NCBI GenBank assembly: GCA_964106645.2
Contig: OZ078259.1
Reading direction: 5' to 3' (one strand)
Source: Podarcis pityusensis
Taxonomy: Eukaryota
DNA: 64,000 bases
The first letter of the stretch is position 1; every line of letters begins with the position of its first letter. The position numbers and the translations under genes are program-made. The notes beneath the pieces were generated by a model. It was not told the origin of the DNA, ran no database searches, and saw only the letters and a program-made list of their open reading frames with translations. Below are positions 29,581 through 57,334 of the stretch, piece after piece.

Positions 29581-30102
29581 TCTGAATAATCCTGGTGCAG
29601 GGGCAAATGAGGCAAAGGGTGGCTAGGTCAGGGTGCTTATTAATTTGAAGCTGATAGCCTTTTTTGTGTGAACATAAGTTGGCACAAGCTGGCATATGGA
29701 CCCTTGAGTCAGATGCATGGAAACTTAGGGAGTATTGAAGTGCAAAAGTCCTGCAATTTTGTGAGTTAAGGGGGCTACAAATGGATTATTTCCAGAATCT
29801 CAGAAGACATAAATGAGCAATTCATACGTACTATATTACATTAGTTTTCCAGAAGTGGCTTTTACATTGTGTGAAAGCTCAAATATTGTGCACAGGAAAT
29901 TGTCAGGGAAACAGAATAAAATGCCATGTGAATATAGCCAAAGAATAACTTCATAAACTGCATGCATTTTGGAACAAGGGCTCCCAGCATCCATCACCTC
30001 ACACATATTGAGAAGAGAGACATTAATTTGCACCCAACTGAGGTTATAGGAATGTGGCTGTAATTGTGCTGATAAAGCGTGTTCTCCTTCATGGAGAGCA
30101 CG

Positions 30103-30908
30103 TGTTGCGGTGGGGGCTGCCAGGACACTCCAAAGTTGGGGGCGGACTAATTGTTCGTTGGCCACTGATGCGATTGGGGCTTCCCTTGTTGTTGGGAAGA
30201 AGTTAATGTTGCCATTTGTTGATTGACAGCCAGAAATGCTAAAACTCCTTGCACGAGGCTAGGGCTTCCTCTTTTCGACCGTGCATCGGATTGCCCGTCC
30301 CCCCCTCCCTAGAATTAGGGTTGTTCGCTTTGACCTTGCTATGCCTGTCATGGGGTCGTCTGCCGTTGGGGCAGGGGCCTGGTAGGAATTTTGTCCATCT
30401 GGCTGATTGGCTGGGGCCATTTGGTTTTTTGCCTACTGCATAGCAAATCATCACAACTTGTAAGGTTGCGGTTAGGCATTGGTTTATGGTTTGGTTGGTT
30501 GAGGGGAAGTGGTTGAGTGCCTGCCCTTGGTAGGTTGAGTGCCTGCCCCTCTAATGCTGCTGCTGCAAGGGATTCCGTTAAAGGAATTGGGGGCTAACTA
30601 TTGCTTGTCCACTCTGTCAAGGGGGCTCGGGCTATAGCAATGAGCTCCTGGTTGCATTTGGGGTGAGGGCAGGTTCCCTGCTCCGCGTAACCCCCAAGTG
30701 TATTCCCCTATTCTGACTTTCGCATCGTGCAGAATGTCAGTCTGTCCCCCATGGTGGGGGCAGATAGTCGCAACCAATGCCTAAGCAACCACTCACAAAT
30801 TTGTATTTCAATAAAGTTGTGGCCAAAATTATGCCAAAAATCTTAAACAAAAAATTCTGTGTGATGTGTGAGTTATTGGGGTGGCCCTGGGGACCTCGAC
30901 ACGCAACA
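30103..30908 (+). mobile_element. Non-autonomous DIRS/Ngaro-like repeat, copy 1
   Basis: tgttgcg...cgcaaca ends, no TSD, aataaagttgtggcc motif, homology to copies 2 and 3. Confidence 0.65.
30381..30437 (+). other. ENE-like U-rich internal-loop RNA structure
   Basis: GGUAGG-AAUUUUGU-CCA...UGG-UUUUUUG-CCUACU. Confidence 0.55.
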
Positions 30909-44215: not shown

Positions 44216-44394
44216 ACTTCTCCCTCCTTTTGCAACACTTGCCATCACTCCTCCTACAGGGTGTGCTTCGGTTAGCCATCTTTTATGAGTAGAAATTTGG
44301 TGGGAGCCCCTGATTTCCCACAGAGCTACAGTTCTCAGAATGATTCAACAGTCAATCCCATTTCCCATGGAATTCTGAGAAATTGAGGGTCTGC

Positions 44395-45155
44395 GTTGCA
44401 CGCGGGCCCAAGGCCCCTTCCCCACTATCCTGGAGTGGGAGATTGAGCCCAGCCCAGGCGATGGCCCCACGATCACACCATGGCCTATTGGCCAATCAGA
44501 GATCAGTGGTGTGATCATGGGGGCATATAAAAGGTGGCGATCCATTTCTGGGGATTTACCTGGCTTCGCAACGCTGAGTACCCACCTGCCCGCCCTGTAT
44601 TTTAGGTGTCGGCTTTGGCCTTGCTCTGGACTTTGGTTGGTTCCCTGTTTTGGAACAGGGGCTGGGTAGGAATTTTTTCCATTTGGCAAATTGGCACTGG
44701 CCACTTGGTTTTCGCCTACCTCTTAGCAATTGTCACAACTTTTGTAAGGTTTGGCGGTTAGGCATTGGCTTATTGTGATGTGGGGGAGGAGAGGTGCAGC
44801 CATCACCTGCCCCTCCAGGTACAAGAGTATTCTGGTAAAGGAATCTGTGGATCTGGATCTCGTCCGAAGTCTGCTTGAGGGGCTAGGGCCATGCCAGGAC
44901 CCAGCGGGAACCTCGAGGTGAGCTTCAGTTGCTTGCCATCAACGGAGCTCCCTCGTTTGGTTGTTTACCTTTCCAGACTTCCTGCAAGGCAGACAGGAGT
45001 CAGATAGTTATTGCCAATGCCTAAGCCAATACCACTCACATTGCTGTAATCAATAAAGTTGTGGCCTAAATTTTTGCCCATTAACCTTAAATTAAAATTC
45101 TGTGTCAGTGTGTATTTATTTATCCTTGGGGGTGCGCCGGGTCTTGACGCACAAC
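44395..45155 (+). mobile_element. Non-autonomous DIRS/Ngaro-like repeat, copy 2, inside a MITE
   Basis: gttgcacg...acgcacaac ends, CCAAT and TATAAAA near the 5' end, aataaagttgtggcc; host MITE resumes after it. Confidence 0.7.
44665..44720 (+). other. ENE-like U-rich internal-loop RNA structure
   Basis: GGUAGG-AAUUUUUU-CCA...UGG-UUUUCG-CCUACC. Confidence 0.6.
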
Positions 45156-54806: not shown

Positions 54807-55597
54807 TTGCGTGATCAGGCTGCGACAGCTCCAGCCCCCAGGGATCATAAGAAAGGAATAAAGACTCCAACAACGTGTTATGGAATTAAAATTAGGCTGG
54901 AACTTTATTAAACTTCCAAATGTAGGAAGACCTTGGCTTAGGCCTTGGGCGTGTATCCCTCCCAGCCCCCTGGCCGGGGGAACTGGGGCACAATAGGGTA
55001 AATGTGATATAGGGGTACACTGTGAGACGTATGTGTACGCAGGCAGCCCAGCCCATATCCTCACATGCAGGGTAGTTCACTGACAACTTTTCGGTGTATG
55101 GCCAGTGACACCCATATATATAACCCCTTTTAAGAGGGGACCCTGGAATTGCTGCCGTGGGGGGGGTGAGTCACCACTTCACGCCCCCCCATTATAGGGA
55201 GGAAAAGACTAAAGGATTCCACCCAAGACCATAAACCACCCAAGTTGTGACAAATTGCTACTGGGAAGACAAAACCTGCCAATGCAGGAAAATTTCTTTC
55301 CGGTCCTTCAACAGCAACCAGTCAAAGACCACAGCAGCGCCCACTAAACAGGAAGAAAAAGTTGACCTGCAATCAAGAAAACATTAAACTAAGGGAGGGT
55401 AGGGTGGGTGAATCTCCTGAACCGACTGCCTGGCTACTGTTGGCTGCACCCCCTATTTATAAATGGGGCTGGCCCCACCTCCCGGCAGTAAAACTTGACT
55501 ACCAAGTCTGGGCGTGAACCTCCAAATATTAACACTGAGAGGCAGGCCAGCCACTGTTTGCCATTAAGCTCCCTGGGAACTGTAGGACTGCGTGCAA
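54807..55597 (-). mobile_element. Non-autonomous DIRS/Ngaro-like repeat, copy 3 (most divergent)
   Basis: Minus strand ttgcacg...cacgcaa, TATAAAT, tagcaatttgtcacaactt, aataaagtt; no TSD. Confidence 0.6.
55261..55302 (-). other. ENE-like U-rich internal-loop RNA structure
   Basis: GGAAAGA-AAUUUU-CCUGC-AUUG-GCAGG-UUUUG-UCUUCCC. Confidence 0.55.
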
Positions 55598-57334
55598 TCT
55601 CACAAAGGGCACCCACAATGTAAAGTGTGAGTGTTCATTCTTTCACGGAATAAGTCCTTTTTGTATTTTTTTAAAAAATTCTTCTGATACAAGCTGAAAC
55701 TAGGAGGGTTTATCCTCCTTCGGTGCCCTATCACAGTAGTCCTTTTCACACAGTCCTCCAACTGTGTAGGCAGTCCCTCAGACCTCTCGTGCTCAGGTGT
55801 TAGGGATGGGTTAATATAATTTTACTGTAGTGGTTAATTTGCTTCAAATAAGCTTCCTTCTCTGAGGCTGAGATTGTTTTGTATGATACAGAGGTCCAAA
55901 GATGCCACAAGGCTAAATCAGAAAAGCACTGTCCTAGTTCTGTCTCCCAAACACTTTGCCTCTGGTACAATCCTGAGACCAGCCCCTTTGTATGGGTAGT
56001 GTACAGGCAACTCCCCATTTATGCTCATTCAAGACACATGTGACCGCACATGCGTGCATTGTCACAAACCTGGAAGTGACATGAAGAGGGGCAAAAACAG
56101 TCCTATAAGAGCACAAAAATGGCATGAAAACAGCATCTAGCAATGCCATGAGCCTTTGCAAGTGCCATCCCAGGAGACTTTGCACCAACGTCTGAGACCT
56201 TTGGAGAGTTGGAGTTGTCTGTAAGCAAGTACACGTCACAATGGCAAGTGAGAGAATGATGTATCCTGATGCGTGATGCTGTTCTGCACAGTGCAGCAAT
56301 CAAACACACCATATTACCAAGAATGCACTTCAGAGCTCTTTCACACATTAAAATTTGGCCATATCCAAACTTTCATCCAAATTTATACAGTCACAGTCAT
56401 AAAACAGCTGCCTGATTCTATAATGACATCAACCTGCCCACCAGTAATTATGATTGATTAGAGTATAGGGATCAGATTTTCATAATTTCCATCTCAATCG
56501 TATGGGGCTTCCTCTCAAATAATGATGCACAGGACTACAGCCAAACTCTGAGGATTGTTATATAACACTTGCACAAAGCAAAGCTCGGCAAGAGAGACCC
56601 TCTTTTCAACTTTTGACTTGGCTGATGGAACTTTTAAGTTGTTTTACTATAAGCTTCTTGCTTCAATTTTGTTGCAAAGGTTTTAGCTTTTTGAAAAGCT
56701 TCCCAGAGTGATAAGGGAAGATATGAGGGTCATACTAGCATATAAGGGTTTATTTGTTGCTGCTCCCATCATGAGCATAGTCAGGCTCAGTGGAATAAAT
56801 TGAAATGATAGAAAGAATGTATGCATGCTGTCCACACCCCCCAGTTGACTGAGATTAACTGGAGCAGCATCAGACTTGGCTATTCAGTTTAGAACCTTTT
56901 CTTACATTCATTTGTTAATTCACTTATCTCACTTCTGCTCCATCCTTTAAGTCAAGTTAGCTTCCAAAGAGGCTTACAGCAATTGAAACCAGTCGCAAAG
57001 ATGCAATGTAAGGCATCAGGGATTAAAAATGTTGTACGTTTTGTCCCGATACATATCTGTTAAAGAAATGTATTTTTCCTGTTTTGTTACTCTCACATTT
57101 TGCATAGCAAACTGCAATCCTATGTGTATGTGTGTATTTCCTAATGGTGAGTCTTCATGTAAATCATGCAAATAATACTGCCATGTTTTCTTAGGGAACA
57201 TAAAGTCAAAAACCCAGTCTTACGTGTGAGATTTTCAGGGCAATCCTATGCATTTTTAGAAGTACATTTCACTGGGTTCAATGGAGCTTGCCTTCAAGTA
57301 CCGTAAATTGTATGCAAGTTACATCATCATCATC

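Follow-up and report, generated by a model that had tools for sequence, protein, structure and literature searches.

The window, a stretch of 64,000 nucleotides of contig OZ078259.1 from Podarcis pityusensis (assembly GCA_964106645.2), carries three copies of one repeat, two on the plus strand and one on the minus strand. They are solo A-X-B end-units of a Ngaro element, a tyrosine-recombinase (YR) retrotransposon of the DIRS order, and of this assignment we are virtually certain. The unit is about 800-830 nt long, begins with AA, ends with CGCAA, and is laid out in the window as follows.

30074-30906, plus strand: copy 1, a solo A-X-B unit with ends AA…/…CGCAA and no target duplication
30074-30292, plus strand: A repeat of copy 1, the promoter-bearing left end (boundary from homology)
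30293-30467, plus strand: X of copy 1, the unique spacer that separates A2 from B2; an RNA domain with a three-way junction
30468-30906, plus strand: B repeat of copy 1, present twice in a full element
44381-45154, plus strand: copy 2, a solo unit of an older subfamily, its 5' end about 10-15 nt short
44526, plus strand: TATA-like sequence of copy 2
54807-55639, minus strand: copy 3, a solo unit of the most divergent subfamily

The parent was found with a pattern that joins the right end of the unit to its left end. This pattern occurs at four loci, which are 99.9% identical across 7.26 kb. The intact element L096 consists of A1 (219 nt), gag-like, RT/RH, YR, and SGNH/GDSL open reading frames (ORFs), B1 (426 nt), A2, X (168 nt), and B2, and copy 1 is 72% identical to its A2-X-B2 part over the full length. 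In Pfam, the RT ORF matches PF00078 (E 3.9e-14, a score that covers the RT domain alone), and weak matches fall on the YR ORF (PF00589, E 1e-4, under the curated cut-off) and the SGNH/GDSL ORF (PF00657, E 9e-4). The YR translation displays H-S-F-R plus a terminal Y, which we read as such motifs are read in PMC8547959, and a methyltransferase domain, the criterion for Ngaro versus PAT, was not found by Pfam in the four ORFs. Among 29 relatives of copy 1, the target duplication is 0 nt in 22, 1 nt in 6, and 2 nt in 1, and AA forms a short core common to both ends. An LTR of an ERV or Gypsy element was rejected, since the ends are not TG…CA, a target duplication of 4-6 bp is absent, and the parent encodes a YR in place of an integrase.

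Split repeats in the order A1…B1-A2-X-B2 are complete in 14 of 21 elements, namely L096 and 20 picked by hand from 150 scored matches to span families; one has a partial A and six lack a second B. The 14 complete elements form a single clade, with the last ORF 59-100% identical to that of L096. Their B repeats are about 425 nt long, and B1 and B2 are 99-100% identical, including a fast-changing middle that between families is merely 59-69% identical to copy 1. This organization resembles that of Xenopus DIRS-53_XT, which has the same order of gag-like, RT/RH, YR, and SGNH ORFs and repeats A1…B1 A2 B2 that are 100% identical in young copies (10.1101/2021.08.05.455354). It differs in the length of B (152 nt in DIRS-53_XT) and in the 162-181 nt of unique X between A2 and B2, and RNA structure is not described for it there. 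Scattered units of the type A-(unique spacer)-B are also reported as the solo ABs of Cafeteria Ngaro (PMC8547959) and as SIRE of VIPER, which has an exclusive 30-bp middle (PMC6681497); the present units differ from both in that there are thousands of copies and that the spacer is a conserved folded domain. Ngaro-type elements and their solos are already known kinds (see also PMC4157794 and PMC4350176).

The X motif has 6,997 exact matches in the genome, compared with 26 for a control motif, and none of the first 30 matches listed has a B1 upstream. A first look returned 5,533, 4,027, and 1,598 family candidates for copies 1, 2, and 3, respectively, 40 of each being scored. The copy-1 subfamily has at least 40 copies at 96-99% identity. 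The junction pattern found no exact end-to-end junction of this subfamily in the genome, and its solos far outnumber full elements, an excess that may point to recombinase-made or directly mobilized A-X-B units. Junction patterns for the copy-2 and copy-3 subfamilies, meant to reveal their full-length parents, returned 0 matches and 1 unrelated match.

Several relatives depart from this layout. L130, L131, L132, L138, L147, L148, and most of L196-L209 end after a single B, without A2-X-B2, and are the reciprocal product to the A-X-B solos. At L095:7956-9221, a copy-1-type B-A-X-B unit starts exactly at the B boundary and the DNA upstream is unrelated. L137, L138, L144, L146, L147, L130, and L131 have decayed gag, RT, and YR and an intact SGNH ORF adjoining B1, some of them with an older decayed SGNH further upstream; these families are multi-copy and near-identical, which suggests that selection acts in cis on the hydrolase ORF or on its RNA end. 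RT-YR elements on metagenome contigs (L186-L195; RT 33-48% identical) carry short internal repeats after YR, and split repeats were found in none of these 10 loci.

The ends of A have structures of their own. A TATA-like box lies about 50 nt upstream of the A end in full elements, where the transcription start is a predicted one. Between this box and the A end is a palindrome whose sequence differs between families and whose pairing is kept (L096:2003-2041, the A end of 13 other elements, and about 30250-30287 in the window); it may serve strand transfer, and in RNA both arms would be on A2 alone. The junction of B tail and A head (L096:8250-8345) folds into a long hairpin in which a short inverted repeat flanks AAA. 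This is a likely recombinase site, possibly read as folded single-stranded DNA.

A covarying helix at the start of the B repeat

The B repeat is spanned by a long-range helix, helix B, whose 5' strand crosses the boundary between X and B.

30464-30484, plus strand: helix B 5' strand of copy 1, with a GG bulge at 30470-30471; the B repeat starts at about 30468
30772-30790, plus strand: helix B 3' strand of copy 1
44751-44769/45013-45029, plus strand: helix B of copy 2
55220-55238/54934-54951, minus strand: helix B of copy 3

The initial annotation, made from the letters of the window, had proposed this helix for all three copies, and in each of them we recovered its strands at those positions with pair probabilities of 0.7-1.0. 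The segment of copy 1 from 30330 to 30840 folds with a z-score of -2.72 (2 of 100 shuffles were as low) into the X domain, an outer helix A, and helix B in series. For the family-wide comparison, 171 loci were reduced to 142 motif-anchored and 137 kept loci, that is, 120 distinct copies in nine clusters, a motif-based selection that favours conserved motifs; a tenth subfamily was added separately. The cognate helix B duplex had a median energy of -32.2 kcal/mol against -18.5 kcal/mol after shuffling, and in 104 of the 120 copies it was lower than all 30 shuffles. Helix B of the copy-3 clade scored -38 with itself and -21 to -25 against the main clusters.

Covariation had been claimed for all three copies. 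Copies 1 and 2 share an 11-nt core, and copy 3 alone swaps pairs, so that the claim is overstated; the actual covariation comes from the wider family. Across the ten subfamilies, helix B and the lower stem of the U-rich hairpin in X covary by anchored counts. One pair of helix B changes from A-U to C-G, another is U-A, C-G, G-C, or A-U depending on the cluster, and the tenth subfamily contributes three further swaps. In a 33-row alignment, the whole structure contained 33 cells with two-sided changes compared with 12.1 in shuffles (0 of 500), and one slid control equalled its covariation score (0.105 vs 0.101). Anchored counts were used because MAFFT misaligned helix B of the copy-3 clade, so that this alignment undercounted its covariation (1 of 11 pairs). 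Helix B and the X domain are very probably a real RNA structure.

The repeat boundary is tied to this helix, a coincidence that the initial annotation had not noted, nor had it identified the Ngaro parent. In all 14 complete elements, B1/B2 identity starts just before the GG bulge, 4 nt before it in 13 elements and 2 nt in 1. Helix B may be chiefly a reverse-transcription signal, with minus-strand cDNA starting at or beside the bulge, which is a serious possibility although we hold it at less than even. Priming could proceed by self-priming from the 3' strand of helix B after a cut, or by initiation at the bulge, as in hepadnavirus epsilon. The part downstream would then be supplied from B1 in each cycle, which would set the B boundary and keep B1 equal to B2, and structure on the B1 side would stop or hand over the second pass. 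The constant position of the boundary and the near-identity of B1 and B2 over some 425 nt despite their fast-changing middle favour such a role. Which primer DIRS-1 and the DIRS order use is stated to be unknown (PMC7192593), and self-priming is known in some LTR elements (PMC5006619). On the other hand, the 14 elements are one clade, in which the boundary may have been inherited once, and copying of the primer strand should erase the bulge, yet the bulge is kept; the distant relatives, being without split repeats, are uninformative on a priming boundary. A priming role would be compatible with the explanation that we prefer, namely a 3'-end module. Splice-donor-like hexamers also lie just 5' of helix B in both contexts (30459-30465 in the window and L096:7820-7825).

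The X domain and its U-rich loop

X is a conserved three-way junction closed by stem P1, and one of its arms is an ENE-like hairpin.

30336-30344/30438-30446, plus strand: P1 stem closing the X domain of copy 1
30379-30437, plus strand: ENE-like hairpin of copy 1, with its lower stem at 30381-30386/30432-30437
30387-30392 (AAUUUU) opposite 30425-30431 (U6-G), plus strand: ENE-like loop of copy 1
30395-30397/30422-30424, plus strand: upper stem of the hairpin of copy 1
44665-44720, plus strand: U-rich loop of copy 2
55261-55302, minus strand: U-rich loop of copy 3

Folded alone, X domains have z-scores of -1.5 to -2.1. In the lower stem, five of seven pairs show two-sided changes in the 33-row alignment (U-A to A-U or C-G, G-C to A-U, and others), and the stem is absent from the prediction in 2 of the 14 elements. 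The loop, AAUUUU opposite UUUU(C)G, is kept beneath unrelated upper stems, including that of the copy-3 clade. Its shorter U run measures 4 in 93 copies, 3 in 19, 5-6 in 7, and 2 or fewer in 10 (129 of 138 copies could be anchored and 9 could not), and two subfamilies have U3 on one side. The hairpin and the 5' strand of helix A are located in X and hence occur once per element, before B2 only.

The loop is a U-rich stretch flanked by two stems, as in an ENE. It is closed by C-G on the upper side; on the lower side AA faces (C)G ahead of the stem, with A-U closure in the copy-3 clade. A poly(A) signal with its spacing is present, and the predicted fold brings the loop near the 3' end. We found one such loop with two As (three in the copy-3 clade), where a dENE has two U-rich loops and an adenosine triad. 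A MALAT1-like or other known RNA family was rejected: Rfam gave no match at gathering in the window, and L096 7700-9100 yielded just four chance-level matches. ENEs and dENEs have been reported in plant, fungal, and slime-mould transposable elements and in stickleback retroviruses (PMC7583470, PMC13541005, PMC6233925), and the X loop shares with ENEs its position as a U-rich internal loop between two stems near the predicted poly(A) end of an intronless retroelement RNA. The KSHV PAN ENE forms five triples (PMC7583470), in comparison with which the X loop, mostly U4/U4, is shorter. The Evade ENE needs G-C pairs next to its U tracts (PMC12501189); here AA/(C)G separates the U tracts from the lower G-C stem. 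Unlike known ENEs, the loop is separated from the end by about 430 nt of sequence, a distance that two long-range helices are predicted to bridge; its host is of the DIRS order, and the function of the loop is a predicted one. We class the X hairpin as ENE-like, with a fold backed by covariation and with a putative triplex and protection. That the loop binds poly(A) is, on these models, about an even bet.

Alternatively, the X domain may be a protein-binding cis-element for Gag packaging, export, or RT loading, in which the U-rich loop with its AA/G side would be a protein or tertiary contact without any poly(A) triplex, and X would mark the full-length RNA because it occurs once. We consider this rather unlikely. 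It would fit the three-way junction being more alike between families (77-98% identity) than the A repeats (63-94%), the reduction of the loop to U3 in some subfamilies, and the retention of an intact X by decayed, non-autonomous multi-copy families. It leaves aside that both loop strands stay U-rich in the copy-3 clade, whose upper stem has been replaced, and that the invariant helix A puts the start of the tail beside this loop.

Helix A and the mature 3' end

Helix A joins X to the poly(A) region of B.

30451-30459, plus strand: helix A 5' strand of copy 1, in X; invariant
30814-30823, plus strand: helix A 3' strand of copy 1
44732-44741/45056-45065, plus strand: helix A of copy 2
55242-55251, minus strand: helix A 5' strand of copy 3
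30810-30815, plus strand: AATAAA poly(A) signal of copy 1, conserved in all subfamilies; its use is a prediction
45052-45057, plus strand: AATAAA of copy 2
54904-54909, minus strand: AATAAA of copy 3
30834-30878, plus strand: predicted cleavage site and GU-rich downstream element of copy 1, at canonical spacing, with CA about 21 nt after the hexamer

The pairing of 30452-30459 with 30814-30821 given in the initial annotation was reproduced, and that of copy 2 was one base off (it starts at 44734). The same source had called helix A partial in copy 3; the break is there, but it comes from private mutations, and relatives of copy 3 keep the full strand. At every position of helix A, between 99 and 120 of the 120 copies have a pair. 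Compensatory changes were found in none of its 10 pairs, that is, it is conserved rather than covarying. By our estimate, one 10-bp complement in 500 nt is about the chance expectation for a single sequence, and what supports helix A is that it stays invariant in subfamilies that share 59-69% identity with copy 1 in the middle.

The strength of helix A depends on the state of the RNA end. Before cleavage its probability is at most 0.24 in 13 of the 14 full elements. In a model of the mature end, cut about 21 nt after the hexamer and extended by a modelled tail, it is at least 0.66 in 13 of 14, with a median of 0.99 in further copies (17 of 20 loci scored), and the start of the tail is then some 13 nt away from the X domain with its U-rich loop. 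With helices B and A formed on this modelled end, the variable middle is looped out and the tail comes to lie near that domain, in agreement with the initial proposal. Because helix A is predicted to be strong only after cleavage, it fits the role of a clamp of the mature end and not that of a mask. A third helix, between the 5' strand of the loop and the sequence after AATAAA, was rejected: its probability, about 0.9 in copy 2, was 0.0 in all 14 elements, and where the 5' strand of the loop has changed, the matching change is in the local stem instead.

The suggestion that helix A masks AAUAAA as a polyadenylation switch, at B2 or, by pairing backwards, at B1, did not survive this comparison and is improbable. 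Helix A does contain the last two As of the hexamer, and in the whole 3'-end fold of L096, X pairs back to B1 with a probability of about 0.44. However, those two As are all that it covers of the signal, it is weak before cleavage in 13 of 14 elements, and transcription reaches X only some 450 nt past the B1 signal, so that co-transcriptional masking is possible at B2 only, where it would block the very site that the element needs. Two hexamer-less copies keep the helix A strand, which speaks against dependence, though they are uninformative for a lineage. These copies, L151 and L159, belong to different subfamilies, both lie near the start of contig C1, and both lost AATAAA via the same 8-nt deletion. 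The deletion pattern has exactly two occurrences genome-wide, and a separate lineage without AATAAA was rejected.

It is likewise highly improbable that the pairings act in single-stranded cDNA, for a circularization fold or recombinase loading, rather than in RNA. The cDNA of DIRS-1 is linear and single-stranded (PMC7192593), and the B/A junction is itself palindromic. The G-U pairs of the sense strand (pair 2 of helix A in 33 of 33 rows, and others in the lower stem) would, however, be A-C mismatches on the minus strand.

Identical poly(A) signals in two contexts

Since AATAAA and the core of helix B sit in B, they occur twice per full element, and the two occurrences differ in what lies upstream. 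B1 is preceded by a strand at the end of the last ORF, here called the ORF4-end strand, which holds the stop codon of the SGNH ORF. Its target corresponds to the following segment of copy 1.

30786-30796, plus strand: target of the ORF4-end strand when the repeat is B1; mostly unpaired in the solo or B2 context

In each of the 21 elements, its pairing partner is the 11 nt that follow helix B (probability about 1.0 in L096); the solo copies of the window lack the strand. The resulting duplex has a median of -18.3 kcal/mol at B1 vs -7.4 kcal/mol at B2, and for 11 of 14 B1 duplexes no more than 3 of 50 shuffles did as well. Over the 25 nt that precede the hexamer, the unpaired probability is 0.34 at B1 vs 0.52 at B2. 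For the hexamer itself the values in the 14 young elements are 0.53 vs 0.52 with 55 nt of downstream sequence and 0.41 vs 0.52 with 30 nt, and for UGUA 0.49 vs 0.45. The tenth subfamily goes further. Twelve of its 14 pattern matches follow an SGNH ORF, and the duplex of the ORF-end strand, with about 20-25 pairs (-26 to -34 kcal/mol), extends across UGUA as far as AAU. The first three hexamer bases are unpaired at 0.3 or less in 9 of these 12 B1-context loci, and behind X at a median of 0.84 (17 of 20 X-context loci scored). Most of the 12 loci have no A2-X-B2 following and may have arisen by recombination.

The ORF4-end strand is nearly invariant, and its sole variable position pairs in just 7 of 12 loci. 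The search for a B1-side counterpart in copy-2-like families gave 3 matches vs 1 for the control, none of them adjoining an ORF. Occlusion specific to B1 by the ORF4-end strand is, on the modelled folds, somewhat better than an even prospect, and at B1 this strand is a better candidate occluder than helix A. The HIV-1 polyA hairpin is a precedent for structure-controlled poly(A) choice (PMC2645353); in both cases a duplicated AAUAAA would be ignored at first and used the second time, through structure and a sequence unique to one copy. Unlike in HIV-1, the occluding strand here lies outside the repeat, at the last stop codon, and would pair some 350 nt away with the first copy only.

Among the listed records that contain the sequence, none was filed as RNA. 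In four raw RNA runs from two studies, copy 1 is covered by 58-69 reads per run, which map in both directions and derive mostly from sister subfamilies. Neither starts nor ends pile up, at a read number insufficient for locating the 3' end, and the loose ends listed contain no poly(A); 8 and 5 reads extend past the predicted cut. These reads look like background from dispersed copies. An A-rich stretch lies 3' of the predicted cut site and could also mislead oligo-dT methods.

A model of the Ngaro 3' end

The architecture of the Ngaro 3' end is real and supported by covariation, and its function is predicted. The explanation that we prefer, to which we give an even chance, is a 3'-end module that chooses B2 and clamps the tail. 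Judging from the layout, genomic RNA must pass B1 and end in B2, although AATAAA is identical in both, because the element must regenerate its ends. Helix B would form in both B repeats and bring the sequence just 5' of B beside the poly(A) region. In the case of B1 this sequence is the terminal part of the last ORF, which would extend the helix over the region upstream of the hexamer and probably weaken B1, and in one subfamily the extension would cover UGUA and AAU as well. At B2 and in solos, X would lie upstream and leave the signal open. After cleavage, helix A would clamp the new end beside the conserved U-rich internal loop, which would most likely bind the tail in a short triplex like that of an ENE, with about four U-A-U triples. 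Such a triplex would be expected to slow deadenylation, and protection would be limited to RNA that reached B2. A more comprehensive version, in which one helix organizes the whole 3' end by silencing B1, docking an ENE at B2, and marking the start of reverse transcription with its bulge, is unlikely as it stands; in it, the B repeat would begin at the bulge because reverse transcription starts there. If true, it would provide the first ENE in a DIRS-order element together with a concrete priming site.

In the literature that we searched, which did not extend to Tycowski 2016 or the papers of Goodwin and Poulter, we found nothing on RNA structure at the 3' end of DIRS-order elements, nor on poly(A) choice or ENEs in them. 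In Ngaro, PAT, and VIPER elements the poly(A) signal is present in duplicate, and no primer of their reverse transcription is known (PMC7192593). Covarying helices tied to exact repeat boundaries turn poly(A) choice and priming into simple tests, and the genome holds young families with near-identical intact copies, four of them at 99.9% or more and many more besides. If the loop is an ENE, ENEs would extend to a new order of retrotransposons, in a tetrapod-type genome, and thousands of solo promoter-plus-poly(A) cassettes would be able to end or stabilize host transcripts.
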